A stretch of DNA of 64,000 bases from Eledone cirrhosa (taxonomy: Eukaryota). Positions 14,033 through 58,534 of this stretch are shown piece by piece. Position 1 is the first letter of the stretch, and each line of letters begins with the position of its first letter. A program made the position numbers and the translations under genes. The notes beneath the pieces were generated by a model. That model worked only from the letters and a program-made list of their open reading frames with translations. It did no database searches and was not told the origin of the DNA. The stretch covers positions 36,890,001 to 36,954,000 of the forward strand of contig OZ024744.1 of NCBI GenBank assembly GCA_964016885.1. Reading direction: 5' to 3'.

Positions 14033-14033
<1 letters not shown>

Positions 14034-19401: not shown

Positions 19402-19464
19402 CATATATACGCATATGCGTATATATATACATATCAATCTATCCATCTATCCATCTATCTATAT

Positions 19465-33024: not shown

Positions 33025-33206
33025 ATTGTTTCTACGTTTTGGTACAAGGCCAGCAATTTACCAGTGCATTACTGGTATTTTATTCTATCGACTCCGTAAG
33101 GATGAAAGGCAGAGTTAACCTCGGCGGGATTGGAACTCAGAATGGCAAGGGCCGTAACTCTATGCATCAACGCATAGCGTCCGACCCTTTAACGATACTG
33201 CCAATC
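33025..33206 (-). mobile_element. SINE copy flanked by TAA tracts on both sides
   Basis: Homologous to 16993-17156. Confidence 0.85.
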
Positions 33207-33214: not shown

Positions 33215-33259
<45 letters not shown>

Positions 33260-33284
33260 GAAGAAGAAGAAGAAGAAGAAGAAG
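33208..33284 (+). repeat. (TAA)n then (GAA)n tract
   Basis: Direct reading of the sequence. Confidence 0.95.
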
Positions 33285-35978
33285 CGACTGAGTGGGCAAA
33301 TCGGGGAAATGAGAAATGACATAGGAAAGCTTGAGTCACTACTGAATGGGACACTAAAAAACATAGGCACTAAAAATAGACTGGAAATAAAATACAAAAC
33401 TAGGAGTAAAAAGCTAAATATTATCATAGAGGAACTGAAGCAACGCATTGTAGCAAAGAGTGCCAAAATCAGGCGATACGAGAACAGAGTCAGTCAGTAT
33501 AAACAGAACCGCATGTTCGACAACAACCAGATGATGCTGTTTGGACAGCTTGAGGGGGAAAGAAAGAGGCAACGACTTGATCCCTGGGGCGGAGCAAACT
33601 AAAACATTCTGGAGAGGAATATGGGAGCAGGATGTTAGACACAATGCCCAGGCAGGGTGGATTGAGACAGTACAGAGGGAGATCGGTGAGCAGGCACAGC
33701 AACAGACTGATTTGAGTATCACAGTTGAAACTCTTAAGGGGCAAGACAAAAAACTAACCAACTGGAAATCACCAGGCCCAGATGGTGTGCAGGGGTATTG
33801 GATTAAACATCTAACATCCCTCCACCCGAAGCTGACGGCCATGTTCAATGACTGCTTGGTGTCGGGTGAGGTGCCAGAGTGGTTGACAAAAGGTACCACA
33901 GTTCTGATAATGAAAGACCGAATCAAGGGTAATGATGCTACCAACTATAGACCTATCACATGTCTGCCCGTAATGTGGAAACTGTTGACGAGCATTGTGT
34001 CTGAGGAAATCTACCATCACCTCCACACAAACAATTTGTTACCGGACGAACAGAAAGGATGCCGAAAGAAGTCACGTGGTACAAAGGACCAGTTGCTTAT
34101 TGATAAGATGGTAATGGGGAATTGCAGGAGGAGACACACTGATCTTACCATGGGATGGATAGACTACAGAAAGGCATTTGACATGGTGCCTCATTCCTGG
34201 ATCACCAAAAGCCTGGAGATCTTCAGGGTGGCAGATAACATCAGACAGTTGCTAGGCAGGAGTATGGGGTCCTGGGAGACAGAGTTGACATCAACTGGAG
34301 TATCCTTGGGAAGCGTGAAGATCAAGAGAGGTATCTTCCAGGGAGATAGCCTGTCCCCTCTGTTGTTTGTCCTTGCCCTGATGCCCTTGACCATTATGCT
34401 GCGAAAAGTGAGAGCAGGATACAAGTTGGGAAGGGGAGAGCTTACCATCAATCACCTCCTCTTCATGGACGATCTTAAGCTCTTCGGGAAAAGTGAGAAG
34501 GAGTTGGATGTGCTTGTTGACACTGTCCGTATTTTCAGCAGTGATATATGTATGCAGTTTGGTATTGGTAAATGTGGAGTCATTGTGATGAAGAGGGGTA
34601 GGTTGAGCAGAAGTAACGGGATCCAGATACCAACAGGTGAGATGATAAAGGAAATTGACTCTGAGGAAGGATACAAGTATTTGGGCGTTCTGGAGGCTGA
34701 TGGCATAAAGAACAAAAAAATGAAGGAATTGTTAAGAACTGAATACATTCGGAGAGTAAGGAGCGTATTGAAGTCACATCTGAACAGCAGAAATGCCATA
34801 AGCGCAGTAAATTCCCGAGCTGTGTCTATTATTAGGTACAGTGCAGGAATTCTGAGATGGAATGTTGCTGAACAGAAAGAAATGGATAGGAAGACTAGGA
34901 AGCTATTGACTATCTACAACATGTTCCACAAGAGGAGTGATGTCGATAGACTCTACCTAAGGAGATCTGAGGGTGGAAGAGGTCTTATCAGCATAGAGGA
35001 CTGTGTTCAGATGGAGAAAAACAACCTATACAAATACGTGACCTATAGTAAGGAGCCAATGCTCAGAACTGTACTGAAGGAGGGGACAGTAGGCCAGGGG
35101 ATGTCCAGGGAAGAAATAACATCAAGGAGGAAGAGCAGCCTTAAGGGAAAACCCCTTCATAGTACCTTCTTTGAGAAAACTGAATTTAGAGATCCACAGA
35201 CATGGAACTGGTTGAGAAGAGGAGACCTCAAAAAGGCTACAGAAGGAATGCTAATGGCTGCGCAGGAGCAGGCCCTCAAAACGAAGTGGTTGAAGCACCA
35301 TATCTACAAGGAGGAGGCTAGCCCACTGTGCAGGATCTGTGGAGAGAGAGGAGACTGTGGCTCACATGTGTCCGAGTGTAAACACCTAGCCCAGACCCAC
35401 TATAAGGGCTGGGGACACGATGTGATGGGCAGGGTGATCCACTGGCACCTGTGCAAAGTAAACAATCTACCACATTCTGAGAAATGGTATGAGCATAGGC
35501 CAGAGGCGGTGATGGAGAACAATCAGGTGAAGGTGCTGTGGGATTTTAGGATACAGACGGACAAAAAACTGGAACACAATAGACCTGACCTGGTGGTTGT
35601 GGACAGAGAAAAAAGATCGTGCCTGATTGTGGATGTGGCCTGCCCGTTCGACACGAGAGTGCAAGAGAAGGAGAGGGAGAAAATTAACCGATACCAGGAC
35701 CTAAAGTGGGAGGTGAAAAGGATTTGGAACTGCCATGAAGTCAAAGTGATCCCGATTGTCATAGGCGCACTGGGGACTATCTCCAAAAGTTTCCAGGGAT
35801 GGTTAAAGAAAATCGGCCCCTTCACGCTTTTTGGAACGCTTCAAAAAGCATGCTTGCTTGGAACAGCAAGAACCCTCCGATACGTCCTGAATATCTGAGG
35901 CTGCAGGTAGTGGCTTGATATTCAATCCAACGGACTTTCCAGTTAACCAACATCAATGACTGAGATTCAAGGAATAAC
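33278..35978 (+). mobile_element. Dong family A copy A3, 5'-truncated
   Basis: Near-identical to A2 and A4; ends ATTCAAGGAATAAC followed by (TAA)n. Confidence 0.93.
33541..35898 (+). CDS. RT-CCHC-RLE polyprotein fragment (785 aa) of the truncated Dong copy
   Basis: IDYRKAFD, QGDSLSPLLF, FMDD, YKYLG, CRIC, RPDLVV..DVACPFD..EK..Y. Confidence 0.8.
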   Translation: MDSLRGKERGNDLIPGAEQTKTFWRGIWEQDVRHNAQAGWIETVQREIGEQAQQQTDLSITVETLKGQDKKLTNWKSPGPDGVQGYWIKHLTSLHPKLTAMFNDCLVSGEVPEWLTKGTTVLIMKDRIKGNDATNYRPITCLPVMWKLLTSIVSEEIYHHLHTNNLLPDEQKGCRKKSRGTKDQLLIDKMVMGNCRRRHTDLTMGWIDYRKAFDMVPHSWITKSLEIFRVADNIRQLLGRSMGSWETELTSTGVSLGSVKIKRGIFQGDSLSPLLFVLALMPLTIMLRKVRAGYKLGRGELTINHLLFMDDLKLFGKSEKELDVLVDTVRIFSSDICMQFGIGKCGVIVMKRGRLSRSNGIQIPTGEMIKEIDSEEGYKYLGVLEADGIKNKKMKELLRTEYIRRVRSVLKSHLNSRNAISAVNSRAVSIIRYSAGILRWNVAEQKEMDRKTRKLLTIYNMFHKRSDVDRLYLRRSEGGRGLISIEDCVQMEKNNLYKYVTYSKEPMLRTVLKEGTVGQGMSREEITSRRKSSLKGKPLHSTFFEKTEFRDPQTWNWLRRGDLKKATEGMLMAAQEQALKTKWLKHHIYKEEASPLCRICGERGDCGSHVSECKHLAQTHYKGWGHDVMGRVIHWHLCKVNNLPHSEKWYEHRPEAVMENNQVKVLWDFRIQTDKKLEHNRPDLVVVDREKRSCLIVDVACPFDTRVQEKEREKINRYQDLKWEVKRIWNCHEVKVIPIVIGALGTISKSFQGWLKKIGPFTLFGTLQKACLLGTARTLRYVLNI

Positions 35979-36005
35979 AATAACAATAATAATAATAATA
36001 ATAAT

Positions 36006-39000
36006 GTTTTCTTTATTAACCACAAGGGTTTACATAAAGTAGACATTAAGGACAGTACAGGACAATACAGGACGGTACAAATGGGCATTTCTGCGTGTAA
36101 AAAAACAGAGGTCGAAATAAAATAACAAAGAAAAATTCCCCAATAGGGGGGAGACTTCCGAGGGACATTTGTGGAGAAAGCCCATTAAAAGACCACAGTG
36201 GCCCTGACCACCAGGGCAAGTGCCCTCTCCCAGTTTTCCACCTTTAATTTACAGACACATACTCAGAGAAGGCCCATTCATTCGGGCCATACTTGCTTCT
36301 CTCACCCATCTTTCAACAAAATGCTGGGAAGAGAGCACTTCCCTCTCTACCCTGATTTTCCTTTTCAGATGAAATTTGAAAAAGTTAATCAGGGCATCAC
36401 CGAAGAGGTAAGTGCTCGTCTTCAGCCCTTTCAAAAGTATCCACGTTACTATCTCTTTCGCCATGGCCACCAGACAGATAAAAACTGCCTGCCCTTCCCG
36501 GCTAAAGAAAGAGGGCGGGGAAATCCTCACGATGGACTCAGCTGATAGCTGGATCCGTCCTACACGTGACAGCAGGTGTTCGACATAAACCCACAAGTCA
36601 GCAATGCTCGGACACTGGACGAGTGCGTGCAGGACGGTTTCGTCGCCCTGCGCGCATCTCGGACATGCCCGGCTGACGGCACCTCCATGCCTGTAGAGTT
36701 TATCCCGAACTGGCAAAGCTCCTCGGTAGCACTGCCAGGCCAGGGAATTCTGGAAGTTGTCCATAGGCCCCGGCCCGAAAGTTCTTCCGAAGAGATTGGC
36801 TAGTTGATCTTCGTCGACGCCTAGAGTTTCTCCAAATACGTCGTCGCTCTTCCCCTCCACTAATCCCCTATAGAACGCCAAGGTGGAGTTTCCACCGATC
36901 ACATTGCCCGATTGGTCGAGGGCTGTGAGCGCCTGAAGACATTCCAGTCTCCAAGCGCTACCTCTCGGTCTTCGCTTGACCCAGGACTGCAGCTCCATCA
37001 AGGAGACGAGCTGGGGAAAAACGTGTCTAGCAAACGGCGACCACACCTGATCACCGTCGAGGAAGAGGTGGAGATGTCGTAGCCTGAGCGCGTGTCTGCG
37101 TATCATCAGCCACGGCATGCCCAGCACTCCACGTAGCGGGTGTTGACAGCAGATGGACCGCCTGACCATCGGAGCGCGTCCCTTCCACAAGAAGCGAAAG
37201 AGCAAACGCTCCAGCGCAGTCAGGCGGGGCTTAGGACAAGGTACGACGGTCAGGCGGTAGTAGATGACGGATGCGATGTACGCATTCGCCACCTCCGCTC
37301 GACCTTTCAGGGATAGCTTCCTCTCGACCTATTTCTGGGTGAGAGAAGCCACCCTGCTCGTCACCTCGTCCCAGTTTTTGTCCGTCTGGAGGTCTGGACC
37401 GAACCAGACCCCTAGCAATTTAACCGGACCGCCCGTCCAGCGCCCGACGACGCTGTTGGACGGCATGGACCTGCCTCTCCAGGTGCCGAGCTGCAGGCCC
37501 ACTGACTTTTCCTGGTTGATCATTGCTCCGCTTCGTATTCTCTTAGTGTAGTGCCGATCGCCTCGATGTGTTTGGTGTTCGACACCACTACGGTGACATC
37601 GTCCGCATATGCTGACACGGATTTTCCGCATCCTAGTGTGCGCGGGATCCCCCTCAACGTCTCCAGTTTCTGCAGTAATGGCTCGAAAGTCAATACGTAC
37701 AAGAGGGACGAGAGGGGACATCCTTGGCGGACCGAGCGCATGATGTTGAACGGTTCCGAAAGGTGATCGTTCACTCTCACCACAGTACATGGCAGCGATC
37801 GAGCCTCTGAAGACGGGCCCCAAACCAGCCGCCCTCAGGACTGCCGCTAGATAACGATGGTCGACCCTATCGAAAGCTTTCGACTGATCTAAGTTTATCA
37901 AAGACCCACCCGTGCCAGGTTCGCTAGCTACCCTCTCTACGATGTATCGCATCAGGTGTAGGTTGTCGTGGATGGATCTGTGGGGAATGGCGCATGTCTG
38001 CACCTCTCCCACCAGACCACCAACGACAAGCGCCAACCTCTTTGCTAGCACCTTGGCCAAAATCTTGAACTCAGTGTTTAGCAGAGTTATCGGCCTAAAA
38101 TTATCTATGTTATCCCTCTTGTTCGGATCCTTTCTCAGCAGCGGCACCGTTCCTCGGCTCACAGAGCTGGGAATTCTCCCGTTCTGTTGCCAGTTGCAGT
38201 AGACGTCCGCCAAGAGGCCTCCGAACAAGTCTGGCATTTGTACGTAAAGTTCATAGGGCAGACCATCCAAACCAGGCGATTTACCCCTTGTGAAGCCAGT
38301 CATTGCCTCCAGTACTTCAGCGGTTGTTATCGGCTTTTCGCAACATTCCGTCTCAGTGGCCGAAAGCCGCGGCAGTCCATCGAGGTAGACACTAAAGTCC
38401 ATCCCTCGATTCGGCCCGCCACTGCTCCCGAACAGTTGAGCGAAGCGTCGCTGAAAAGCTTCACACATTTGCCCGGGATCGAGTAGCATGCGCCCGTCGT
38501 GGTCCACCAAAGACCGGATCGTGGCGTTGTTGCAACGACGCGCCTCCGCCACTCGGGCCCATTGAACAGCTTTCGTCCCCTCGTGTCTGAGAGAACGCAC
38601 CCTAGCTCTGACAACGCAGCCTACGTGCTTTGCATTGAAGAATTGGTCAAGGGCCAATTTCGCCGCAAGTACGTCTGTCGCGGTGCCTTTGCAAAGCGCC
38701 TCGTCTAATTTTCTAACTAATTCTCCCTCTGCTCTATTTTTCTCTATTGCTAAAGCCTTATTAAACCTAATGGACTCTATTCTAATTGCTCTTTTCAGAG
38801 CAAACCACCACTTGCTGTTGACGATGGCCCCCGTCAACGCCCGCTTAACTAGTTCGCTAATCCGGTCTCTGTAGGCCTTGCGCGCTGGTAAGGACGCGTT
38901 TAGCTTCCAGTAGCCGGCTCCTCGTCTATGAAACCTATCTAAATCAAGCACACAGATCACGAATTTGTGGTCCGTGTAGCTGACTATTTTGAATTGTGGA

Positions 39001-41830
39001 CAGCCTATGCTAGACCTATCTATTTCCCTACAAAATATTCTATCTAGATATGATCTGGATGACCCTATGCGATTTGTCCAAGTCCACATTGGTACATTCG
39101 AGAAATCCAAACGGTACCTGTCAGACAGTTCAAAACGCCTGAGCAGGTTGGTGAGACTCTTGCACCCTCCTCCCCTATCCACTAATCCCACACAATCCCA
39201 GCGTGTATCTAAGATCCCGCTCCAGTCGCCCACTAACACTAAAGAGCGGGACGTTCCAAGAAAGGTCTCCAGACGCTTGAAGAAATCAGGCCGCCCTGCT
39301 CCTGTCGGGGCATAGACGGCCACTAACCTGAAAGCTTGCCCGTCTCCGCTGGTCACGTCCAGCACCACCACTTACCTTCTGGGTCCAGGAAGATGGCCCG
39401 TATGGCAAGATCCAAACCTCTCCGAAAAAACACAGCAACTCCACCCCCCGATCCCGGACGGCTGGGAGATGCGTACACATCGTAGCCGCCGAAGATCGGT
39501 GCGAAGTCCCGTGCTTTGGAGGTTCTGGTCACGCTGATGGCCACTACATCTATGTTTAGTGACCTGAGGTCGTTGAACAGGTGGCCCTGCTTCCATGACG
39601 ACCCCAAGCCATGCGCATTTATGCTGCCTATTCTGAGTGAGGTTATGTTGAAAAGGAGTGAAAAAGATGGGAAAGACCACTTATCTTACTTCTCGTAGAG
39701 GAAGGACGGTTTTTCCATCTATTTCACTGCTTGTGGCCTCCTGGGGAAGGACGTCCTTATAAATCCTCCTGGAGAGTGCTTGTCGGAAGTCTCCGATGTC
39801 TTTGGGGAATTTTTGTTTTAGTGTCATGTACGTTTTCTGTGTGATGCGAGTGATTTGTATGTGTGGAGGTGGTGTGAATTTTTGGGTTGTTGTGTAGTCT
39901 TTTTCTGTGATGTTGGTGTTGTGTTGGATGTAGTGTAATAATTGCTTGTTGTTCAAATTTAATGCTGTGTAGTGTGTATCGTTTTGGTTGTTTTGTTTTG
40001 TTTGCGTTTGTTGTGGGTTTGTTTCTGTTTCGCATTTTGGTGACTTTTGTGGTGTAGGTGATGGTGGTGTTGGGGTTAATGATGGTGATGGTGTTGGTGT
40101 TTGGGGTGATGGGGTTGGTGATGCTGGTGTGGATGGTGGCATATCTATCCTAACTTTTTTGTTTGTTAATTTATTTGTTTCCCTCTGTATTTTGTTTTTG
40201 GAGGGGGAAGGAAGAGAATTTTTTCTTTTTTGGTTTCTTTTTTTCTTTTTTCCTGATACCGTTTCCCACTGCTCGTCGTCACAATCCGTCTCCAGTTGTG
40301 ATAGTCCGGGGAGTGGAAAATCCTCCACAGGCGTTAGTTCTGGTTGTGGCGTCCTGGATGGTATAGGCGCTGGTGCTAGTTCTGAAGCGTTGGGTGGTGT
40401 TGGTTTTGCTACTGTTGTGGGGTTGTTGCTGTTATAGTTGCTTCTCTTGTTGCTGCTACAGTTGTTGCTGCCATCTCTGCTACTTGTGGTGTTGATGGTT
40501 GATTCACTGGGGTGGGTAGGAGAGGTGGCCTCAACCTTTTAGCCTGAGTGCAGAAACCCCTTAGGTGGGTTCCTTCACCACAAACGACACACCTAGGCCT
40601 TCTGCCCTCGACAATTACGGTGAGGTGGCTGCCGTCAGGGAGGTCTATTACCTCTGGGATCTCCTCAATGCTTTTTTGGTCCGTTTGGATCAGGTGCTCC
40701 ATCCCAGATCCGGACCAGTTCTCCTGCTTTTCTTTTGCTATTGCTATTATCTTGGTGTTGGCTTCGATGCCGGCGTGGACGGCCGCTATTAGTCAGGGAA
40801 ATTCGATGGCCGGTGGAACGTGGGTCACCCTGATCTTTACGAGTCTCTGGCCACAATAGCTTGGGACGAGTGTGAAGTCGTCACTTTTTAATGGGGCCAT
40901 GGAGTGTTCTCTAGCCTCTTCTGGTGTTTCAAAGAACACGTCCACGGTTCCATACTTCTGCCCACGTCTGATGTGGGTTTTTCTTGCCCACACATATCCC
41001 AAAGCTTTATGGATATGGAACTCGGATGCCCGTTCCACTCGGCGCAATTTTACATTAATTGTTCGATACGACACGGTGCATAGGTGCCGATGCTCCATTT
41101 TATTAGGTGTGGGGGGAGGGGCTGACCCTGTACACATCTTTCTTTACCATTGTTTTGGCATTTTCTAATTCCTCCTGAGTTACCTGAAATGCTTCGCACT
41201 CTTTTGCTACTCTGGCAAAACTCAGTGTGGTTTTTTTAATGTCATTGTTGCTGTTGTTGTTATCGTTATTTTTGTTATTATTAATTTTAGTTTCACTTGT
41301 GGTGGTGGTGACGTCAGTGGTGTTCGGTGTGGAAGAGTCCATTTTGGTTGAATTCATTTCGACATCACGAGTTAATTTATTTTTTTCTTTTGTTTCTGTT
41401 GTAGCGGTGGTGGTGGGGGTGGGGGTTGTCGCGGTGGTGGTGGTGGTGGTGGCGGCTTTAACACCTGCAGTTATTGGTAATGGCGGGAAATGAATGTCTG
41501 CCTGAGACAAATTTAAAATATTGCTACTGCTTAAATTTTTTGTGTTGGCAAGCGTAGTAATATTTACAATGGTGGTGTCGGTGTGAGGTGATAGTTTATG
41601 AGGAAGGCTGTCAGCTTCGTGTGGCGGTGAGACTTCCATGTTTTTTTTTCAAAGAAATTTTTTTGATAATTATAAATGTTTAAATTTTGACCCCAATCTT
41701 TTTGGAAAACAATGTATGTGCGCTTATATACAGTTAACAATAAAATTTTCCATAAATGGCAATTTTTAACAAACGGAAACAACAAACCTTTGCGGAGCTC
41801 ACGATGATACGATTTACTACGTAGGTCGCC
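36006..41830 (-). mobile_element. Tx1/L1-clade element (copy C), full-length, frameshifted
   Basis: ORF1 pieces at 39681-41639 with CVVCGEGTHLRGFC knuckle; ORF2 APE-RT at 37329-39371, YADD in 37520-37783, C-terminus at 36249-37292; TTA tracts at both ends. Confidence 0.92.
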
Positions 41831-41857
41831 AATAATAATATTAATAATAATAATAAT

Positions 41858-44800
41858 GATTTCATTTATTGGCCACAAGGGCCGACATATAGGGGACAAT
41901 ACAAAAGATTGGGAGAGTGGGGTTTTACAGAAAAATCGAGTAAACAATATGAATAACAATAACAAATTAACAATAAAGTAACAATAAAATTACAACAACA
42001 AAAAATTCCCCAATAGGGGGGATGACAACCAGGGTTCGCTCAAGTACCCCACCAATCCTGAACGACCCGACGCTTCGAGAGCACCCTGGAAGGGCACCCC
42101 TATCCTCCTTAAATTTACCTACCTACAGCCGCATGACCAGAGTAGTTCCTCACACGGGCCATTCTCGCCACATTCACGCACCTTTCAGCAAATGTAGTGG
42201 GGGGCAGCACTTCTCTCTCCACCCTCACCTTCCTTTCCAAGTGAAACTTGAAAAAGTTTCGGAAAACAATGTATGAAAAGTGTCTGTCTTCAGTCCTTTC
42301 AACCTCGTCCACCATACAACCTCTTTCGCTACTGCCACCAGACAGAGGAAAATTGCCTGCCCTTCCTGGCCAAAAGAAGGCGGCAGGTCGATCTTCACTA
42401 TGGACTCGGCCGATAGCCGGATCCGTTCTACACGCGACAACAGCTGTTCAACATAACTCCACAAGTCAGTAATGCGCGGACACTGGTTGAGTGCGTGCAG
42501 AACGGTTTCGTCGCTCTGCGCGCATCTCGGGAAGGTCCGTCTGACAGCACTTCCGTGCCTGTAGAGCTTATCTCGAACCGGTAGTGCCTCCCGGTAGCAC
42601 TGCCAAGCGAGGGATTTTTGGAAATTATCCATCGTCCCCGGCTCGAAAGTCCTCCGGTAGAGACTGGTTAGTTCGACTTCGTTGACTCCCAGAGGCTCTC
42701 CGAGTGCGTCGTCGCACTTGCCCACCACTAATCGTCTATAGAACTCGAGAGTGGAAGTTCCACTGACCGCATTGCCCGCCTGGTAGAGGGCAGTGAGTGC
42801 CTGGCAACATTCCAGATGCCAGTCACCCAGTCTAGGTCTCTTCTTGACCCAGGACTGCAACTCAGTCAAAGAAACCAGCTGCGGAAAGCCCGTCTGACAA
42901 ACGGCGACCACACCTGTTCACCGTTCAGGCAGAATATCTGGAGATGCCGCAGCCTCAGCGCGTACCTGCGCATCATTAGCCACGGCATGCCCAGCCCTCC
43001 ACGTACAGGGTGCTGACAGCAGATTGACAGCCTCACCAGTGGAACCTGACCCCTCCACAAGAATTTGGAGAGGCGCGAACGGGGGCAAGGGACGACGGTC
43101 AGACGGTAGTAGATGACGGACGCGATGTACGTGTTCGCCACCTCCGCCCGACCTTTCAGTGATAGCTTCATCCCATCCTATTTCTGGGTGAGACTGGCTA
43201 CCCTGCCCGTCACATCGTCCCAATTCTTATCCACCTGGAGGTCTGGCCCGTAGCAAACCCCTAGCAACTTTACCGGTCCGTCCGTCCAGCGCCTTTTCCG
43301 GGTTAAGTTTTGCTCCCGTCAACCTTTCATATTCCTCCAATAAGTTGCCGACCACCTCGATTTCTGAGGTGTCCGACACCATCACGGTGATGTTCGCATA
43401 AGCCGACACAGCCTTTCCTTTCCCGGTTCGAGCCGGATGCCCTGCAATAGCTCCAGCTTTTCCCGTAAAGGCTCGAGAGTCAATACGTACAGAAGGGAGG
43501 AGAGAGGGCGCCCTTGACGGACCGATCCGGAGACCTGAAACGGTTCCGAGAGGTGGCCATTAATTTTGACCATCGAGCAGGTGCCGCTGTGCATTGCAGC
43601 GATCCAGCTTCTGAAGATGGAACCCAAGCCAGCCGCCTTGAGGACAGCCTCCAGGTACCGATGGTCGACCCTACCGAAAGCTTTCCAGTGATCTAAATTG
43701 ATCAGAGGCCCACCGAAGCCAGGTTTACACACAACCCTCTCTATGATGTATCGCATTAGGTGGAGGTTGTCATGTATGAACCTGGTTGGGATTGCGCCAG
43801 TCTGCGCCTCCCCAACCAAATCCCCGACGACAAGCGCCAACCTCTTCGCTAACACCCTGGCCAAAATCTTAAACTCTGTGTTGAGCAGAGTTATGGGCCC
43901 GAAATTGTCTAATATGTCCCTCTTGTTCTCGTATTTCCATATCAGCGTCACTACGCCCCGGCTCACAGAACTGGGAATACTCCCGTTTTGCTGCCAGATG
44001 CAGTAGAGGGCTTCGAGGAGATTGGAGAACAAGTCTGGCATATTTACGTAAAGCTCGTAGGGCAGACCATCCAAGCCGGGTGACTTGCGCCTCATGCAGC
44101 CGACAAGGGCATCCTGAATCTCGGCTGAAGTAATTGGCCTTTCGCAGCGCCCAGCGTCAGCCGTCGATAGTTGCGGCAAGCCATCGAGGTAGGGACTGAA
44201 GTCCGAGACCATCTCTGACCCACCACTTCCCCCGAACAACCGAGCAAAATGTTGGCGAAAAGCCTCACACATCCTCTTGGAATCGCTCACCTCGTGTCCG
44301 TCTCGGTCCGTCAAAGACCGAATCCTGGTTTTATTACCACGCTGCGCCTCCTCCACGCGGGCCCATCGAACAGCTTTGGTTCCCTCGTTTCTCAGAGCAC
44401 GCGCCTTAGCTCTGACAATGCAATCTTCGTGTTTCGCATTGAAGAAATGGTCTAATGCCATTCTCGCCGCTAGCACGTCAGTTGCAATGCCACTACCAAT
44501 AGCCTCGTCTAACTCATCTACCAACTCCCCTCCTTTCTATATTTCTCTAACTCTTCTTCTTTGCTAAACTCTATCGACATTACTCTAATCTCTCTTTTGA
44601 GAGACCCCGCCATCTATTGTTGACGACTCCCCCTGTCAACTTTTTCTTAACTAAACTGTTGACCTGGTCCCTGTAAGCCTTACGTGCCGGAAATGACATG
44701 TTTAGCTTCCAGTAACCTGGTCCTAACCTACGCGTCTTATCTAGGCCGACCATACAGATCACAAACTTGTGATCTGAATAGGCGACCGTTTCAAAACGTG

Positions 44801-47670
44801 GACAGCTAACACTATTTCTTTCTATTTTCCTAATGAATATCCTGTCTATATACGATCTAGATGACCCTATGCGGTTAGCCCAGGTCCACACTGGCGCATT
44901 AGGGAAATCTAGTCCTGTCAGACAGTTGGAACTGGCTGATCAGGTTCTTGAGTATTTTGCACACACCCCCCGCTCCTATCGGATACTCCCACACAGTCCC
45001 ATCGTGCGTCTAAGATGCCGTTCTAGTCCCCCGCTAACAGTAAAGGGCGAGACGTACCCAGAAAGGCTTCCAGGCGTCTAAAGAAGTCAGGCCGTCCTGC
45101 CGCAGTAGGAGCATAGACGGCCACCAGTCTAAAGGCACCACCTTCGTTGTTTTTCACGTCCAGGACCACCAACTTCCCGTCCGGGTACCGTAAGATAGAC
45201 CTTACCTCGATATCCAGGCCTTTCCTAAACAGCACTGCCACCCCGCCTCCCATTCCCGGCCGGCTAACAGAATCAAAGATCTGATAGTCGTCGAAAATGG
45301 GGGCTAGTGCGCGCGTGTCGGAAATCCTGGTCTCGCTGACGGCAATTACATGCATTTCTATAGACCTGAGGTCGTTGAGCAGGTGACCCTGCTTCCAGGA
45401 CGATCCCAGGCCTCGAACATTTAAACATCCTACTCTGAATAAAGCGATGTTGGCAGGTTAAAAAGAGAGAGAGGAAGGTTTACTTACCTTCCGGGCTCTT
45501 GTGAAGGTCGGGTTTTTCGACCTTCATAGTTGGTGGGGTTTCTTTTGGGAAATCGTTTAAATGTCTTGAAGTGGGTTTTACGTTCGGGGTTCCCACGTCC
45601 CGAAAAAAGCTGTCTCGTATTTCTTTGAATATATCGAGCGACATTCGCACCAGAACCAAATCTTCTGGCACGTGAAATGTGCTCGATTTAAAAATTTCCC
45701 CCTCCTTTTGTATATTTTCACTTCGTGCTACGAGGGCCATCAGTTCCTTGTTGGCCCTCCTGACGAGCACGAAGTTTTGTATGTTTTGTTGGTGTGATTT
45801 TATTTGTTTGCGTGGCTGTGGTGGTGATAGTTTTGGTGGTGTTGTTTCGGTTGTGTCTGTGTTTGTTGTGAGTGCGGTGTCTGTGGTTTCAGATGTTTGT
45901 GTGTATATTTGTTCTTGCGTCTGTTTAGGTTGTTTGCGTTTGGGGGATTCTGGTGATGGTGATGGTGGTGTTAATGTTGGTGTTATTGGAGAGATGTTTG
46001 CGTGGGTGGTATCTGCGTTTTCTACTGTGGGTGATTTTGTGCTTTGTTGAGTTTTTTTTTTCTTTTTGTGTTGAGTTTTTTTGTATTTTGGGGGATTTTG
46101 GTTTTCCCTCATCTTCACTACTGGTAGATGAGGGGTCTGTGTCTCTAAGTGTGTCTTTATGTATGTTTATGGTTTTATTGGTGTATGTATTTTTTTTTGG
46201 GGGGGGGGGGGATTTGACAGCTTTCCTCGTTTCCCCCCTGGGTGGCCAATGTTGGTGGTGGTCTTTCTATTGTTGTTGTTGGTGGTGGTTTTGCCGGTGC
46301 TGGTGTTGGTTGTGGTCCACGCCCCGGCCTCGGCAGCAATAGAGCCTTTCGACCCCTTGCCTCTTTCAGCAGTTGAGGGCAGAAGGCTCGCAAATGGGTT
46401 TTTTTCCCACAAACAAAACACTGCGGCCTTTTAACTTCGGCCATAAGGTGAATGGCCGTCCCATTCTGAAGGCGGATGTGGTCCGGGATTGTCTTCACAT
46501 TCTCGGACCTGATCTGGAGAAGGATTTCCAGGTCAACCCCGGACCAGGCCCCTCTGGCCGTTCTAGTCACTTCTATAGGCACGGTATCCGTCCCCTCCAC
46601 AAGCACACATCCCAGAAGCCACCACATGTCAAGTCCTGGTGGAATTCTGGGAATGCGGAGACGGGCCGTTCTTTTTCCCATGTGGGATGGGTACATTATG
46701 ACCTTGATGGTTTTGCAAGGAGTCATAGCGTGTTTCATAGCGAGGGCTTCTGACTTGAACAACACGGAAATTGTGCCGTACTGTCTGCCCCTCTCTATGT
46801 ACTGGGTGTCTTCTCTGATGCACCTCAGCGCGACTTCGACATCTTCTTGTGGGATTAAAGCTGCCCTTTTGAATTGTGCTGAGATGCATCTATAATGCAC
46901 TGTTCTGCGCCACTGCCTCAATAGCGTCTACCGGGACAGTTAAGTTGGCCCAGGTTTGCTCTAGCTTGATGAGCTTCCATGCCTGGGCCAACTTTTCATC
47001 TTTGTTTGAGAGGTCCATGTTGAAGCATGGCATCTCCTTTGCTGCTGCCGCAGAGAAAGTGTTCTTCTTGTTTTCGTTGGGGGTGTTGTGGACGTTGTCG
47101 TTGTTCTTGTTGGTGTTGTTGTTAGCACTGTCGCTGTTATCATTGTTGTCTTTGTTGCCACCGTTGTTCTCGGTGCAGTTGGTATTGTTGCTGTTGGTGC
47201 TGTCGCTATTTGTTTTCATGTTAGTGGTGTTGATATTGTTGTTGTATTTGATATTTTTTTTTTGTTATCTGTATTTTCGTTGTCGCTGTTACTGTCATTT
47301 ATTTCAAAATTAGAGTTCTCATTGGTATCATTGGTGTCTTTGTTTACCTTGTTTGTGGTGGTGTTTGTGTTATCAATTTGTGTTAATTTCGCTGTAGCGC
47401 TCCTCTCAACTTCTAGTCGTTGTCGCACGACAGCCGACATATCGCTGGGAGGCGTGGCTCAGCCATGTTATTTTTCTCCGTAAATGTTTTAACATGTAAA
47501 AAGAATTCAAATATTTGGGCCAAAAGGCCCAAACATTATACTTTCCCCTTGACAGGGCAAAGTCTAAGGGCTTATATCCCTTACATAACAAGAAATATTT
47601 AACAACAAATAATTTTAACAGGCAAATAAAGCGACTTACTGGGAGCGAGCAAAATAAGTCCGCTTAGACC
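41858..47670 (-). mobile_element. Tx1/L1-clade element (copy D), full-length, degenerate
   Basis: ORF1 at 45480-47440 with CFVCGKKTHLRAFC; ORF2 APE-RT pieces at 42115-45448; TTA tracts at both ends. Confidence 0.92.
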
Positions 47671-47726
47671 AACAATCATAATAATAATAATAATAATAAT
47701 AATAAGAAGAAGAAGAAGAAGAAGAA

Positions 47727-50700
47727 GAACGGAGGAACCACCCGAAGCAGACAATGATCTGAATACTGAGATAAATAATACCTGGAACAGAGATACGGCC
47801 ACTGAGGAGATGAATGCTGACGGGCTAGGACAAGATTCGGTTGACATCCTAAATTTAGTGGTAGATGAGTTGAACAATGATAGTGGGAGACCTATGAACC
47901 TAAGATTTGTAGACAGGAAAAAGTTAAAAGAAACAACAGCTAAGGTAAACAAAGTCATCCCATACCTTGAGGCGAGGAGTCTTCACCAGTGCAACAATAT
48001 CCTCAAAGCAACAGCAAATACGGTGAGGAAACTACTTGGTATAAAAGCGAGAGGAAACAACAGACAAGAAAGAGCAGAGCCGTGGTGGAAGAAGCGACTG
48101 AGTGGGCAAATCGGGGAAATGAGAAATGACATAGGAAAGCTTGAGTCACTACTGAATGGGACACTAAAAAACATAGGCACTAAAAATAGACTGGAAATAA
48201 AATACAAAACTAGGAGTAAAAAGCTAAATATTATCATAGAGGAATTGAAGCAACGCATTGTAGCAAAGAGTGCCAAAATCAGGCGATACGAGAACAGAGT
48301 CAGTCAGTATAAACAGAACCGCATGTTCGACAACAACCAGAAGATGCTGTTTGGACAGCTTGAGGGGAAAGAAAGAGGCAACGACTTGATCCCTGGGGCG
48401 GAACAAGCTAAAACATTCTGGAGAGGAATATGGGAGCAGGATGTTAGACACAATGCCCAGGCAGGGTGGATTGAGACAGTACAGAGGGAGATCGGTGAGC
48501 AGGCACAGCAACAGACTGATTTGAGTATCACAGTTGAAACTCTTAAGGGGAAAGCCAAAAAACTAACCAACTGGAAATCACCAGGCCCAGATGGTGTGCA
48601 GGGGTATTGGATTAAACATTTAACATCCCTCCACCCGAAGCTGACGGCCATGTTCAATGACTGCTTGGTGTCGGGTGAGGTGCCAGAGTGGTTGACAAAA
48701 GGTACCACAGTTCTGATAATGAAAGACCGAATCAAGGGTAATGATGTTACCAACTATAGACCTATCACATGTCTGCCCGTAATGTGGAAACTGTTGACGA
48801 GCATTGTGTCTGAGGAAATCTACCATCACCTCCACACAAACAACTTGTTGCCGGACGACCAGAAAGGATGCCGAAAGAAGTCACGTGGTACAAAGGACCA
48901 GTTGCTTATTGATAAGATGGTAATGGGGAATTGCAGGAGGAGACACACTGATCTTGCCATGGGATGGATAGACTACAGAAAGGCATTTGACATGGTGCCT
49001 CATTCCTGGATCACCAAAAGCCTGGAGATCTTCAGGGTGGCAGATAACATCAGACAGTTGCTGGGCAGGAGTATGGGGTCCTGGGAGACAGAGTTGACAT
49101 CAACTGGAGTATCCTTGGGAAGCGTGAAGATCAAGAGAGGTATCTTCCAGGGAGATAGCCTGTCCCCTCTGTTGTTTGTCCTTGCCCTGATGCCCTTGAC
49201 AATTATGCTGCGAAAAGTGAGAGCAGGATACAAGTTGGGAAGGGGAGAGCTTACCATCAATCACCTCCTCTTCATGGACGATCTTAAGCTCTTCGGGAAA
49301 AGTGAGAAGGAGTTGGATGTGCTTGTTGACACTGTCCGTATTTTCAGCAGTGATATATGTATGCAGTTTGGTATTGGTAAATGTGGAGTCATTGTGATGA
49401 GGAGGGGTAGGTTGAGCAGAAGTAACGGGATCCAGATACCAACAGGTGAGATGATAAAGGAAATTGACTCTGAGGAAGGATACAAGTATTTGGGCGTTCT
49501 GGAGGCTGATGGCATAAAGAACAAAAAAATGAAGGAATTGTTAAGAACTGAATACATTCGGAGAGTAAGGAGCGTATTGAAGTCACATCTGAACAGCAGA
49601 AATGCCATAAGCGCAGTAAATTCCCGAGCTGTGTCTATTATTAGGTACAGTACGGGAATTCTGAGATGGAATGTTGCTGAACAAAAAGAAATGGATAGGA
49701 AGACTAGGAAGCTATTGACTATCTACAACATGTTCCACAAGAGGAGTGATGTCGATAGACTCTACCTAAGGAGATCTGAGGGTGGAAGAGGTCTTATCAG
49801 CATAGAGGACTGTGTTCAGATGGAGAAAAACAACCTATACAAATACGTGACCTATAGTAAGGAGCCAATGCTCAGAGCTGTACTGAAGGAGGGGACAGTA
49901 GGCCAGGGGATACCCAAGGAGGAAATAACATCAAGGAGGAAGAGCAGCCTTAAGGGAAAATCCCTTCATAGTACCTTCTTTGAGAAAACTGAATTTAGAG
50001 ATCCACAGACATGGAACTGGTTGAGAAGAGGAGACCTCAAAAAGGCTACAGAAGGAATGCTAATGGCTGCGCAGGAGCAGGCCCGCCCTCAAAACGAAGT
50101 GGTTGAAGCACCATATCTACAAGGAGGAGGCTAGCCCACTGTGCAGGATCTGTGGAGAGAGAGAGGAGACTGTGGCTCACATTGTGTCCGAGTGTAAACA
50201 CCTAGCCCAGACCCACTATAAGGGCTGGAGACACGATGTGATGGGCAGGGTGATCCACTGGCATCTGTGCAAAGTAAACAATCTACCACATTCTGAGAAA
50301 TGGTATGAGCATAGGCCAGAGGCGGTGATGGAGAACAGTCAGGTGAAGGTGCTGTGGGATTTTAGGATACAGACGGACAAAAAACTGGAACACAATAGAC
50401 CTGACCTGGTGGTTGTGGACAAAGAAAAAAGATCGTGCCTGATTGTGGATGTGGCCTGCCCGTTCGACACGAGAGTGCAAGAGAAGGAGAGGGAGAAAAT
50501 TAACCGATACCAGGACCTAAAGTGGGAGGTGAAAAGGATTTGGAACTGCCATGAAGTCAAAGTGATCCCGATTGTCGTAGACGCACTGGGGACTATCTCC
50601 AAAGGTTTCCAGGGATGGTTAAAGAAAATCGGCCCCTTCACGCTTTTTGGAACGCTTCAAAAGGCATGCTTGCTTGGAACGGCAAGAACCCTCCGATACG

Positions 50701-50794
50701 TCCTGAATATCTGAGGCTGCAGGTAGTGGTTTGATATTCAATCCAACGGACTTTCCAGTTAACCAACATCAATGACTGAGATTCAAGGAATAAC
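47727..50794 (+). mobile_element. Dong family A copy A4, 5'-truncated
   Basis: ORFs 47810-50134 and 50103-50714 (frameshift at gcccgccc near 50081); preceded by (TAA)n(GAA)n. Confidence 0.93.
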
Positions 50795-50836: not shown

Positions 50837-51530
50837 ACAACCAGAGACCATTGACCATATAATTTCAATGTGCAGTCCTATAGCTCCAACCGAATACCTA
50901 AACAGGCATGACAGAGCTGCACAATACATACATTGGATAATGTGTAAGCATTTTGACCTGCCCCATCAAAAGAATTGGTGGGAGCATCAACCACCTCCCA
51001 TACTTGAAAAAGATCACATCTCAATCTTGTGGAACTTTAGCATCCAAACAGACCGAAAAATAGATGCAAACAGACCTGATATAATATTGAAAGACTTTCA
51101 AAAGAGGGTATGCCTGCTAATTGATATGTCTGTTCCAATAGACAAGAACGTATCTATAAAAACATTTGAAAAATTGAGCAAGTATAAGGACCTGGAGATA
51201 GAAATTGGAAAAATGTGGAAATTGAGAACTAAAACAATACCAGTGGTTGTAGGCGCTCTGGGAATGATACCTAAGGGGTCTAATGATTACATATCGCAAA
51301 TCCCAGGAAACCCGCGTATAGGAGAAATACAAAAGATAGTATTAATGGGAACTGCCCATATACTAAGGAAGATTCTGTCAATATAAGTACATCACAAGTC
51401 TAAACACTAAAGATGCATGTGTGAATATGTATGTTCTTTCTTGAACATGGCGGACCTTGTTGTCTCTTGAGGTCACTGGTTGTGACTTGGTGATGACTCG
51501 TATGAACATAAAGCAAGATAAATGCAACTG
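50832..51530 (+). mobile_element. Dong family B 3' fragment
   Basis: RLE ORF ending 51386; 3' UTR matches 3097-3236; TAA on both sides. Confidence 0.92.
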
Positions 51531-51549: not shown

Positions 51550-51926
51550 GTTTTCTTTATTAACCACAAGGGTTTACATAAAGTAGACATTAAGGACAGT
51601 ACAGGACAATACAAGACGGTACAAATGGGCATTTCTGCGTGTAAAAAAAACAGAGGATGAAATGAAATAACAAAGAAAAATTCCCCAATAGGGGGGAGAC
51701 TTCCGAGGGACATTTGTGGAGAAAGCCATTAAAAGACCACAGTGGCCCTGACCACCAGGGCAAGTGCCCTCTCCCAGTTTTCCACCTTTAATTTACAGAC
51801 ACATACCCAGAGAAGGCCCATTCATTCGGGCCATACTTGCTTCTCTAACCCATCTTTCAACAAAATGCTGGGAAGAGAGCACTTCCCCCTCTACCCTGAT
51901 TTTCCTTTTCAAATGAAATTTGAAAA

Positions 51927-51930
<4 letters not shown>
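51550..51930 (-). mobile_element. 5'-truncated 3' fragment of Tx1 family C
   Basis: Near-identical to 36006-36389; TAA on both sides. Confidence 0.92.
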
Positions 51931-51969
<39 letters not shown>

Positions 51970-51972
51970 TAA

Positions 51973-52900
<928 letters not shown>

Positions 52901-52921: not shown

Positions 52922-55900
52922 GGTTTCTTTATTGGCATAAGGGCTAACACGAAGAAAAACATTAGAGACGGCACAGAACAGACAGGACGATACAAAGTGG
53001 GTTTTGGTCGTGTAATCAGGTTATAACAAAATCGGGCTAGAAATAAATAAAAAATCAAACAACAAGAATTCCCCCAAAAGAAGGAAACCTCCGAGGGTCA
53101 CTCGTGGCGAAAACCACACGAAAAAGACCACAACAAGCCTGACCACCAGGACAAGCGCTCTATCTCAGTTTTCCGACTCCTCAGTCTACAGGTGCATACT
53201 CAGAGCGGGCCCGTTCACTCGGACCAGACTCGCCACTTTTACCCACCATTCAACAAATTTAGACGGCCTCTCCACCCTGATTTTCGCATTCAAGTGAAAC
53301 TTGAAAAATTTAATCAGGGATTGGCCAAAGAGGAAAGTGTCCGTCTTGAAACCTTTCAACCTTGTCCACCACACAAACTCTTTCGCCATGGCCACCAGGT
53401 AGATGAAAACTGCTTGCCCTTCCTCCTCTTTAAAGGAGGATGGCGGGGCTATCTGCACAATAGACTCAGTCGATAAACGGATACGTCCGTCACGCGACAG
53501 CATCCGTTCGACATATCTCCGCAAGTCAGCAATCCTCGGGCACTGAACGAGTGCGTGCAGGATTGTTTCGTCGCCCTGCGCGCATCTCGGACTGGCTAGA
53601 CTGACAGCACATCCGTGCCTGTAGAGCTTATCCCGAACCGGCACCACTCTGAAAGTTCTCTTGAAGAGAGCGAACATCTGATCGTCTTGGACGCCCAGGG
53701 ACTCCCCGAGCACGTCGTCGCACTTTCTCCCCACTAGCCCTCTATAGCACGCCAAGGAGGATGTTCCACCGATACTAGTGCCCAGCTGTCGAGGGCGGTC
53801 AGCGCTTGGAGACATTCCAGCTTCCAAGCGCTAACCCTCGGTCTTTCCCTGATCGAGGAAGTAACTCCGTCAAGGAGACGAGCTGAGGGAAAGCGCGTCT
53901 GGCAAATGACGACCACACCTGTTCACCGTCAAGGAAGCTCCAGAGATGTCACAGCCTCAGCGCATGTTTGTGCATCATCAGCCACGGCATGCCTAATCCT
54001 TCATGCAACGGGTGTTGACAGCAAATGAATCGTTTGACCATGGGAGCACGTCCGTTGCACACAAAGCGGAAGAGAAGGTGCTCCATTTTGGTCAGAGTTG
54101 GGCCGGGACAAGGTACGACGGTGAAGCGGTAGCAGATGACGGACGCTATGTACACATTTGATACCTCCGCCCGACCTTTCAGAGACAGCCTCCCCTCGGA
54201 CCATTTCTGGGTGAGGGAGGCCACCCTGTTAGTCACCTCGCTCCAGTTTTTCTCCATCTGGACCGAACCAGACCCCGAGCACATTAACATGCCTTTCCGT
54301 CCAGTGCCCCACGACGCTGTCGAACGGTATGGACATGCCTCTCCAGGTGCCGAATTGTAAGCCCACCGACTTTTCCTGGTTTATCTGTGCTCTTGTCACC
54401 ACTTCGTATTCCTTGAGTGCGGTGCCGAGCATCGGGACGTGTTTGGTGATTGACACTAGCACGGTGACGTTGTCGGCGTAAGCCGACATGGATCTCGCGC
54501 ATCGTCTCCAATTAGTGCAGTAACGGCCTTAGGGCCAGTACGTACAAGAGGGAGGAGAGAAGGCAACCCTGGCGGACCGAGCGCATGATGCTGAAAGGCT
54601 GCGACAGGTGACCATTCACCCTCACAATCGAGAAGATGTCGCTGTGCATTGCAGCAATCCAGCCCCTAAAAACGGTCTCGAAACGCTCAGGTACCGAAGG
54701 TCGATTCTATCAAATGCTTTAGATTGATCCAAATTGATCAAGATTCTTAACCACCCTCTCTATGATGTATCGCATGATATGGAGATTGCCGTGGATGGAT
54801 CTGTCCTGAAGGGCGCATGTGTGCGCATCTACCAGATCACCGACGACAAGCTCCAATCTATTTGCTAACACCTTGGCCAACATCTTAAACTCTCCGTTTT
54901 GCAGAGTTATGGGCCTAAAGTTGTCTATAACGTCCCCCTTGTTCGGGTCTTTTTTCAGCTGCGGCACCGCTCCCTGGCTTACAAAACTAGGAATGCTCCC
55001 GTTCTGCTGCCAGTTGCAGTAGACATCTGCCAAGAGGTCGCCAAACAAGTCTGGCATATACGCATAAAGCACGTAGGGCCGACCATCCAAACCAGGCGGT
55101 TTACCCCTCGTGCAATCAGTCATCGCTTCCCGTATTTCACCTGCTGTTATCGGCTTTTCGCAGCACTGCGCTGCGTTCGTCGAGAGCCGCGGCAATCCAT
55201 CGAGGTATGCACCGAAGTCCATACTCCGACCGGCCCGCCACCGATCCTGAACAATTGAGCAAAGTGCTGTTGAAAAGCCGCACACATCTGCTCGGGTTCG
55301 AGCAACATGCGCCCGTTTTGATCTGGCAAAGATCGAATTGAGGACTTGTTGCCACGTCGCACCTCCACCACCCGGGCCCATTGAACGGCTTTCGTCACCT
55401 CGTGCCTTGGAGCACGTGCTCTAGCTCTGTCAATGCTTTGCGTTGAAAAATTGGTCGAGTGCCAATCTCGCCGTAAGTACGTCGGTTGCGATGCTTGTCC
55501 TAAACGCATCTTCTAGCTTTCTAACTAACTTTCCCTCTACTCTATATTCCTCTATCACTACTCCTTTGATAAACCTTATCGATTCTACTCTAATAGCCCT
55601 TTTCAGGGTAATCCAACACCTGTTGTTTACGATCGCACCCGTCAACGCACGCTTAAATGATTCGCTAATCCGTTCTCTGTAAGCTTTGCGCGCCGGGAAC
55701 GACGCGTTCAGCTTCCAGTAGCCGGGCCCTTGTCTATCGAGTCTATCTAAGTCAACTTCACCGATCACAAATTTGTAGTCGACTACATTAAATTGTGGAC
55801 AATCTACGCTAGCCTTATCTGTTTCCCTACAGAATACCCTATCTAAATATGATCTGGATGACCCGATGCGATTTGCCCATGCCCACATTGGCACATTCGG

Positions 55901-58260
55901 ATAATCCAGTCTATAACTGTCATACAGTTCAAAAAGCCTGAGCAGGTTGTTGAGGCTTTTACACCCTCCTGCCCTCTCTACTAGCCCCACATAATCCCAG
56001 CGTGAAAGATACCATACCAGTGGCCCACTAACGCTAAAGACCGGGACGTTCCAAGAAAGGTCTCTAGACATCTGAAGAAATCTGGCCGTCCTGCTCCTGT
56101 TGGGGCGTAGACAGCTGCTAGCCTGAAAGCATTGCCTTCGCTGCGGGTCAAGTCCAGCACCACCGTCTTACCTTCTGGGTCTAGGAAGATGTCCGGTATC
56201 GCGAGATCCAAGCCTCTCCAGAAAAGCACTGCCACCCCTCTCCCCGATCCTGGGAGGCTGGGAGATGCATATACATCGTAGCCGCCGAGGATCGGTGCGA
56301 AGGCTCGTGCTTCGGAGATTCTGGTCTCGCTGATTGCCACCACATCTATGTTTACTGACCTGAGATCGTTGAGCAGCTAACCCTGCTTCCAAGATGACCC
56401 CATGCCACGTGCATTTATACTGCCTATTTGGATGACCATGTTGGATGAGAAACGGGGTAAGTGAGAAGGGATCACTTAACCTGATCGTGTGGTGAAGGGA
56501 CAGTAGAACCGTCTCTTTGGCTGGCCAAGGGTGTTTCAAGATGAAATTCGGTATATATCCTCTTGGTAACCGATCCCCTGATGTCTCCAACTGCGCTGGG
56601 GAATTTTTCCTTTAAAAGTTTGTAATGTTCAATTTTGACATCAATGATGTTTATGTTTTTCGGGAGAGTTCTTGGTGTTGGTAGGGTGTAGTAGTTTTTT
56701 CTGTGATGTCTGTGTGCTGCTTTATATATTGTAAGAGTTCTTTATTTGCCATGTTTACGGCTGTGTACTTTTTGGGGGTGGGGTGATTTTGTTGCTGTTT
56801 TCTTGTTGTTGCTGTTGGGTGTGTGTGTTTTGTTTTGTTTGCAATGTTGGTGATGCTCGGGGTGGTGTGGTTGTTGTTGGTGGTGATGCTTGTGGTGGTG
56901 ATGCTGATTGTGTGGTGTTGCTGCAAGTCTCCTTGCAACCTTTACTCCTTTTTGTTTGCTTTCGCTTTTGGAGGGTGAATCTAAAGGTGTTTTCTCTTTT
57001 TTGTTTTATTGTGGCAGACCGTTTACCACTTCCCTCCCGCCTCATACACTATGTCGGATTCCGTGGCGTCTGGGAGGGGTATGAGCTCCGGCGATATTGC
57101 CGCCGGGGTAGCTACTGCGACTGTTTGTGTTGCCGCCACTGCTGCCGCTGTTTTAGTTGTCCGTGGCCTTGGTATAAGTGCCACGGACGTTGCCCTGCTA
57201 TTCACCATGGAAAGGTATTCAACCTCTGTTGCCTGCCCTGCTCTTGGTAGCAGCGAATCAGGCGTCGAAAGGAGGGGGTCCCTCTTCTTGGCTGACTTCT
57301 GCCCACAGAGATAGCACTTTAGGAGCCTTCATGCCACGCTTATAGGGGTTCTTCCTCGAGGACTATGATATCTGGTATGGCCTCGATGAACTCCTGGTCA
57401 GTTTGTATTAGCATTTGCATGCCAATTCCTGACCAGTTCTCTCTTCCCATTCTCTGTATTTGCAGTATGGTGGTCTTCTCCTCGATTCCAGCAATTTCAG
57501 ACGCGGCCAGCCAAGGTATGGGCACGTCTGGCGGGACCTGGGTCAGTGTGACCCTCACAATTTTCTGCCCGCAGTAGGAGGGCACCAAAACTCGTCACTC
57601 TTTAGGGTTTCCAAAGAGTGAGACTTCGCCTCTTGGGGGGTGGCGAAAAGTACATCCACTGCGGCGTACTCTTTGCTTCGGGTGATGTGGGATTTGCGCG
57701 CCCAGACACACCCCAAGTCTTTTTGGATTTGAGCCTCCGTGGCTCTCTCCACCCGACGTAACATTTTCCTTACGGTGCGGTAAGTCACCCTGCGCTGCTG
57801 GTCTTTGAAGAAATCGGTTGAAGGTTTCAGCGAAACTCTATTGTCCTTTCTTGCCCCCTTGGCTCTTGCGACTGCCATCTCCTCCTCCGTGACTAGCACT
57901 GTCTCTATATTTCGGGCCACACCTGTGAAAGAAGTGGCCCTTTTTCAGCGGCACCATTATTGCTGCCGTTGCTGCTGCTACTGGCCTTTTTATTGGTGCT
58001 GTTGCTGTTGCTACAGTTACAAACGGTGTTGTTGGTGTTGTTGCTGTTATCACTGTTGTAGTTGGTTGTGTTTTTGGTGCCACCACCGTTGTTGTTGTTT
58101 TCGGTGCAATTTGTATTGTTGCTGTTGGCCAAAAAAGCCCAAATATTATACTTTCCCCTACTTTCCCTTACACAACAAGAAAAAATTGAACAACACGTAA
58201 TTATAACAGGTAAATAAAGCGACTTACTGCGACCGTGCCAAAATGATGTCCGAACATACC
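52922..58260 (-). mobile_element. Tx1/L1-clade element (copy E), full-length, degenerate
   Basis: ORF1 pieces at ~56470-58130; ORF2 ATG near 56439 gives MVIQIGSINARG; GYWKLN, QGCLLS, YADN; TTA tracts at both ends. Confidence 0.9.
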
Positions 58261-58272
58261 AATAATAATAAT

Positions 58273-58534
58273 AACTAGCAGAATGGCCCGGCGTTGTTCA
58301 GGATTCTAAACATAGATTTTCATATTTATCCCTCCTTTCTGAAATAGTACAGGGAAGTACGGAATACCTCGGCTTCGGGATGGTGTCTACATTTTGTGCT
58401 TATAAAGAAAATTCGCCGTAGATTACCATTGATTTTTTTTCCATGCGAAGTAAATCAATACTTTATCGCGAAATAAATACTTTTGTTTATATTTTGTTAT
58501 TGTGCATGCAGAAATATCTGTACACGAATATATA

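Follow-up and report, generated by a model that had tools for sequence, protein, structure and literature searches.

Tx1-type LINEs with a probable preference for (ATT)n microsatellites in the octopod Eledone cirrhosa

Long interspersed nuclear elements (LINEs) of the Tx1 type that carry an apurinic/apyrimidinic-type endonuclease (APE) are known to insert into microsatellites. In the portions of the sources available to us, Kibi and Koshi of teleosts are described from (TC)n and (TTC)n, respectively, and crocodilian Tx1 families from (TTCC)n and (TTTC)n (PMC4494074, PMC3812793). The repeat (TAA)n, according to the accessible parts of the sources, has been assigned to Dong, of the R4 clade, in Bombyx, Anopheles, Biomphalaria and an ostracod (PMC3812793, PMC7998251). 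Here, we describe a 64,000-nt stretch of the Eledone cirrhosa genome (contig OZ024744.1, positions 36,890,001 to 36,954,000; hereafter the window), in which APE-encoding LINEs lie within (ATT)n tracts, in a single phase and without poly(A), and we conclude that LINEs of the type of family A very probably target ATT repeats.

The region 33207-58274 is a single nest built on (AAT)n tracts, comprising three full-length but disrupted minus-strand LINEs, one truncated copy and four plus-strand elements of R4/Dong type. Copy A (36006-41830, 5,825 bp) has a first open reading frame (ORF1) with a CCHC knuckle and an ORF2 with APE, reverse transcriptase (RT) and a C-terminal zinc finger; its first letters are GG and its last AATAAAGAAAAC. 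Copy B (41858-47670, 5,813 bp) is 72-77% identical to A across ORF2, and copy C (52922-58260, 5,339 bp) is 75% identical to A. The three are mutually 70-77% identical over ORF2, and stops and frameshifts are present in all of them. The 5′-truncated copy A′ (51550-51930, minus strand, 381 bp) is 97.4% identical to A and has ATT repeats at both sides. The intervening (AAT)n tracts lie between an R4-type 3′ end and the 3′ end of A (35973-36005) and between the 5′ end of A and the 3′ end of B (41831-41857); an (AAT)n(AAG)n tract separates the 5′ end of B from a truncated R4-type element (47671-47729), (AAT)13 lies on the 5′ side of A′ (51931-51969), and (AAT)4 at the 5′ end of C (58261-58274) bounds the nest on the outside. 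In another nest, at 1-17000, the order is mirrored, with copy E on the plus strand ending at 3060 and followed by minus-strand R4/Dong-type elements. Copy E (1-3060) belongs to a C-like family, its 5′ end lies beyond the window and (ATT)12 follows its 3′ end; it is pieced together, with internal deletions and with APE and 3′ segments that recur in a scrambled order. A further plus-strand copy, D, occupies about 19464-23567 (within 19440-23579), its 5′ boundary being inferred rather than aligned.

The evidence for targeting comes from the junctions. In element sense, the 5′ junction of A reads attattatt|GG (41830) and that of C ttattattattatt|GG (58260), that is, ATT|GG, while B begins attatgattgtt|GG (47670), with GTT|GG after an imperfect tract in which 22 of 24 bases fit (ATT)n. 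Copy A′ reads attattatt|AAC (51930), with a 3-nt ATT microhomology, so that all four 5′ ends (A, B, C and A′, with B imperfect) are on TTA repeats. All five 3′ ends (3060, 36006, 41858, 51550 and 52922) pass from AATAAA(T)GAAANN straight into at least four ATT units without poly(A). The presence of ATT at every junction is not due to chance, because (ATT)3 starts at only 138 of the 128,000 strand positions of the window. As the 5′ flank of A and the 3′ flank of B are one tract, the 5′ flanks that do not double as a Tx1 3′ flank number three. One ATT phase is common to all junctions, the truncated copy A′ and the outermost copy C included, and none of the copies A, B, C and E lies in a (TA)n tract, although (TA)n is far more abundant in the window. 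Target duplications are not definable within the repeat. A first-pass annotation of this DNA had placed ..TT|GG starts at 41830, 47670 and 58260, five 3′ ends with the above motif directly before ATT repeats, and TTA on both sides of the truncated 51550-51930 copy; each of these statements, including all five 3′ ends, proved correct when the junctions were read again. The site preference for (TTA)n/(TAA)n that it proposed, with fixed phase and no poly(A), is supported in the window and by public reads for family A. Its description of the families as TTA-specific does not extend to the whole clade, as the flanks of copy D, a sixth relative that it had overlooked, differ.

Public sequencing runs were compared with family A only. 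Run X24 is a restriction-site-associated DNA (RAD) library, whose read counts are not convertible into distinct loci; among the matches listed, 4,471 loose ends at the 3′ terminus of A gave the plus-strand consensus (TAA)9TGC with an agreement of 0.86, and 7,642 reads extended beyond one or the other end of the 3′ stretch. The 5′ comparison covered 41690-41839, including nine flank bases, in 5-bp bins, with differences listed from 5% upward. The summed depth in X24 was 1,029, 1,012 and 992 over the final three bins of the element (the last being 41825-29), then 972 at 41830-34 and 931 at 41835-39. Approximately 94% of the depth at the 5′ end of A thus carries on in phase through the nine TTA flank bases AATAATAAT, with an in-element fall of about 2% per bin. 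No letter difference of at least 5% occurred in these nine bases; 22 difference rows were found within the 5′ untranslated region, and therefore divergent copies contribute to the depth. In run X4 (organism B, a second organism label), the single contig (1/1) spans the 5′ junction of A. Among the matches listed, five of eight pieces in X1 and two of eight in X6 reached 41839, where a loose end in X1 reads AAATAATAATAATAATAATA.

Considering these results, we propose, with a probability of roughly 0.7, that the APE LINEs are found at ATT|ATT without poly(A) as their endonuclease nicks the repeat at TpA and reverse transcription is primed on terminal AUU units. Ordinary 3′ cleavage takes place 10-30 nt after the AATAAA hexamer. 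A donor copy would be transcribed on into its downstream ATT tract and, because AATAAA is only 6-7 nt before the element end, cleavage would fall inside the tract, 1-8 AUU units in, yielding an element-(AUU)n-poly(A) RNA. The ORF2 protein would nick the (AAT)n strand, the freed ...AAT-3′OH would pair with (AUU)n and reverse transcription would be primed there; with internal priming on AUU, poly(A) would never be copied. A second nick, ATT^ATT, on the other strand would produce a target duplication of 0, 3, 6... nt, invisible in the repeat. The facing TpA steps on the two strands would allow nicks at AAT^AAT and ATT^ATT, resulting in ATT|element|ATT with 3n-base duplications. Since each insertion would leave ATT on both sides, tracts would fill with APE LINEs and with R4/Dong elements, for which the same duplex would serve in reverse orientation. 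For TRAS1, SART1 and R1Bm, the available portions of PMC1919474 and PMC7265360 describe a specificity set by the endonuclease, and pairing between target-like RNA and the nicked strand.

Several observations weigh against this proposal. The phase of the first nick is not fixed by the junctions, because an RNA ending in AUU yields the same 3′ junction for any nick phase; the bottom-strand nick at AAT^AAT that had been suggested from the letters is compatible with the junctions, while its phase is not readable from them. Contig depth in X1 drops across the 5′ junction of A (175k, 120k, 70k), though it is dropping already inside the element (323k at 41800), and it amounts to 830k in the 3′ bin versus 111k in the 5′ bin, indicating that most genomic copies are truncated; only one 5′-truncated copy (A′) was examined. 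The read support comes from a RAD library and concerns family A alone. The flanks of copy D, a member of the same clade, are ATCT-like instead of ATT. Furthermore, in a short interspersed nuclear element (SINE) whose 3′ end resembles that of the LINEs, the tails are short runs of ATTAT that give way to non-repeat DNA; this speaks for a relaxed target and a tail carried on the RNA. Co-transcribed 5′ (UUA)n could also be the source of the 5′ flanks of the full-length copies.

The SINE tails are what one would expect if the ATT repeats travelled on the RNA, as a 3′ (AUU)n tail and a co-transcribed 5′ (UUA)n, with an endonuclease of loose T^AT preference and with nests formed by R4/Dong elements invading the tails and later LINE copies annealing to them. 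Such an explanation is helped by the imperfect AATAACAA tail of four R4-type copies, by which tails can move on RNA in this genome, and by the tandem-repeat tails known for other LINEs (PMC3747384, in the part available). However, A′ has (TTA)13 at its 5′ side though its 5′ RNA end was uncopied, and three families only 70-77% identical share the same phase, with all named copies in such tracts; we consider transport on RNA rather unlikely as the full explanation. Ribonucleoproteins with an (AUU)n end might also dispense with a nick of their own and prime on ...AAT-3′ ends left by R4/Dong endonucleases or replication breaks, given that an R4-type 3′ end lies opposite four of the five ATT-followed 3′ ends and that the strand rule holds without exception. 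Annealing of this kind appears improbable in view of the catalytic-type APE motifs, which A, B, C and D, the four copies examined, have all retained, the fixed ATT|GG 5′ phase, which fits a defined second nick, and the fifth 3′ end (B), which faces another APE LINE. The window consists nearly entirely of repeats and copy E is rearranged, as passive build-up in repeat-rich DNA or an assembly artefact would have it; base-precise, in-phase junctions, recurring in raw reads and under a second organism label, already contradict this, as does the absence of A, B, C and E from the far commoner (TA)n, and an origin without any targeting is hardly credible.

Targeting by the APE LINEs, which we prefer, agrees with their protein anatomy. 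As in the L1 group and the Tx1 clade, ORF2 has an N-terminal APE, with RT, a C-terminal zinc finger and a separate ORF1, whose CCHC knuckle was seen in A and B. Pfam matches were obtained for RVT_1 (2.6e-11) and zf-RVT (2.2e-8) in copy A and for Exo_endo_phos at 45026-45457 in copy B (3.7e-7). The APE is 37% identical to that of relative P0004, which in PDB matches human L1 ORF2 best; half of the APE of A gave chance matches only against PDB, and an ESM Atlas search returned unnamed RT clusters only. Among named proteins, those of Argonauta hians are the most similar, which by itself makes an octopod host probable. The window junctions and the reads also show the target preference used for the Tx1 clade in PMC4494074 (more than 20% of flanks of one type).

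In the RT trees, to which the window copies contribute 158-251 residues each, rows with short RT segments, including L045, L037, P0002 and P0003, were excluded, and the trees hold no named Tx1L, Kibi, Koshi or vertebrate L1 reference. The window copies form one clade with Argonauta, Acanthosepion and many unnamed proteins (support 99/99 and 100/100 in two trees). Metagenome loci served as target-labelled markers: L006, L012 and L014 are flanked by U2 on the 3′ side, and L017 by 5S. With a plant-L1-like outgroup, the U2- and 5S-flanked loci joined the cephalopod-containing clade in a 29-row group free of named Tx1 references (support 87/96), whereas an R4 outgroup left the base of the grouping without resolution. 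The U2-flanked loci formed a separate clade (100/99), and the top RT scores outside the cephalopod-containing clade came from U2-associated loci (L010, 42%). On sequence grounds, the window copies are likely to belong to the Tx1 clade; of the Tx1 type assigned in the first-pass annotation, the L1/Tx1-group anatomy is borne out, and the clade placement has moderate support in trees lacking a named reference.

The metagenome loci also allow a comparison of targets. A first scan gave no relative among 22 pattern matches; a second yielded 80 loci, each of them distantly related (25-44% identity to P0004 in the best segments), and no (ATT)n tract of at least 15 nt was present in the 45 of these loci that were inspected. 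The tRNA-target labels tentatively given to L021 and L027 were not borne out, as ARAGORN found no tRNA gene in 9/9 loci. In some of these Tx1-type elements (L010:701-817, L011:554-716, L014:782-896), a U2-like segment lies inside the element, upstream of ORF2 and separate from any flanking U2. Keno (U2 snRNA) and the 5S rRNA-targeting elements that we take to be of Mutsu type are linked to the window clade by the 87/96 grouping of the U2- and 5S-flanked loci, but their targets are RNA genes, whereas the flanks here are microsatellite. Moreover, the U2-flanked L012 and the 5S-flanked L017 keep poly(A) before the target, in contrast to the window copies.

Copy D ends in the same terminal motif as A, B and C (3′ end 23567, plus strand), but then continues with ATATCTATTACT. 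On its inferred 5′ side, 21 of 24 bases agree with (ATCT)n; of the 127,952 24-mers of the window, 11 score this high. In the RT tree, D is the sister of B (support 100/97), with approximately 74% RT identity between the two. The APE loop before the conserved SYLD motif reads NRIGSSR in A, B and C and NRTGSSR in D, and ATT and ATCT repeats have T^AT in common. These sequence features, from one copy with an unaligned 5′ boundary, are weak evidence, yet they hint that the target changed inside the clade, with ATT in B and ATCT in D, and make D a candidate (TATC)n/(GATA)n sister family. It is tempting, though speculative, to imagine a cephalopod Tx1 radiation that makes its RNA 3′ end inside its own target, the element giving AATAAA and the ATT tract contributing the site of cleavage, the U-rich signal beyond it and the AUU to which the primer binds; sister families would then switch targets (ATT in B, ATCT in D) through small endonuclease changes and a new read-through tail. 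If so, only copies landing in the target would leave progeny.

The antiparallel neighbours include a single-ORF LINE at 33285-35972 (plus strand), with RT and a C-terminal restriction-like endonuclease motif, a second copy of its family at 47730-50788 (plus strand; 98.5% identity over 2.7 kb), a truncated copy of a second R4/Dong-type family at 50838-51530 (plus strand) and a truncated older copy at 51970-52899 (plus strand), whose zinc-finger region is split by an internal (GA)83 tract (52117-52279). They match RVT_1; their restriction-nuclease Pfam matches are weak (E 0.10-0.25). All eight 3′ ends of R4/Dong-type elements carry TAA on the sense strand. A reading as RTE elements ending in (TAA)n tails was given up, as the translations show a C-terminal restriction-like nuclease. 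The neighbours are probably of R4/Dong type, judging from their motifs, together with PMC7998251, the weak Pfam matches and the TAA 3′ ends. In shared tracts, they and the APE LINEs always occupy opposite strands. An imperfect tail start, AATAACAA..., is common to four R4-type copies (35973, 50789, 4580, 9434), which suggests that part of this tail was copied from RNA. In two differently truncated copies, (AAG)n lies between the (TAA)n tract and the 5′ end (33258-33284, 47704-47729), and A12 is found there in the copy at 50838.

The SINE is represented by full-length copies at 33027-33206 (minus strand) and 16992-17156 (plus strand) and by about eight partial copies. Its 3′ end shares with the LINE 3′ end a 3-bp hairpin around C(U/C)UGU, with compensatory changes at two of three pairs. 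Both full-length copies adjoin ATT tracts in LINE orientation, and partial copies with short tails are found elsewhere, which favours some RNA contribution to the tail. Elsewhere in the window, a 242-amino-acid ORF without Pfam match (25019-25747, minus strand) presumably resembles a GIY-YIG (Penelope-type) endonuclease fragment. Outside the 5′ tract of C, the sequence at 58273-58310 (plus strand) reads ACTAGCAGAATGGCCCGGCGTTG..., which we take to resemble a Helitron-type 5′ end.

Compared with the described systems, the window LINEs share with Kibi, Koshi and the crocodilian families a Tx1-type APE and insertion into microsatellites, and are set apart from Kibi and Koshi, by description, in an AT-only (ATT)n target instead of (TC)n/(TTC)n and in a mollusc host. 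With Dong they share the (TAA)n duplex, and R4/Dong-type elements are present in the same tracts; Dong, however, has a single ORF, a restriction-like endonuclease and TAA on the sense strand, in contrast to two ORFs, an APE and ATT, on the opposite strand, in the window LINEs. In Octopus vulgaris, L1-Tx1 and Dong-R4 elements are abundant and recently active, with 80 and 51 families, respectively, in the supplement; the portions of text and supplement available give no target for either group (PMC13282606). No ATT-targeting Tx1 element appears in the available parts of PMC4640811, PMC3747384 and PMC3472496. More generally, no ATT- or TTA-specific Tx1 was found in the literature searched, with Repbase, Dfam and subscription papers outside the search and further targets listed in Fig. 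3 and the supplement of PMC4494074; it is quite possible that an ATT-targeting family is already in a repeat catalogue. Therefore, the window LINEs are most likely another microsatellite-targeting member of Tx1, of a known kind, with a target that we have not found described for this group.

No new principle is involved, and an AT-only microsatellite is added to the known targets of Tx1. Two unrelated endonuclease classes, APE and restriction-like, use one repeat on opposite strands. The sister families with ATT and ATCT, if true, would provide a compact natural test of the shares of endonuclease and RNA-DNA pairing in LINE targeting, a question left open in the literature consulted. Furthermore, the use of this repeat accounts for the growth of large element nests in octopod (TAA)n tracts.

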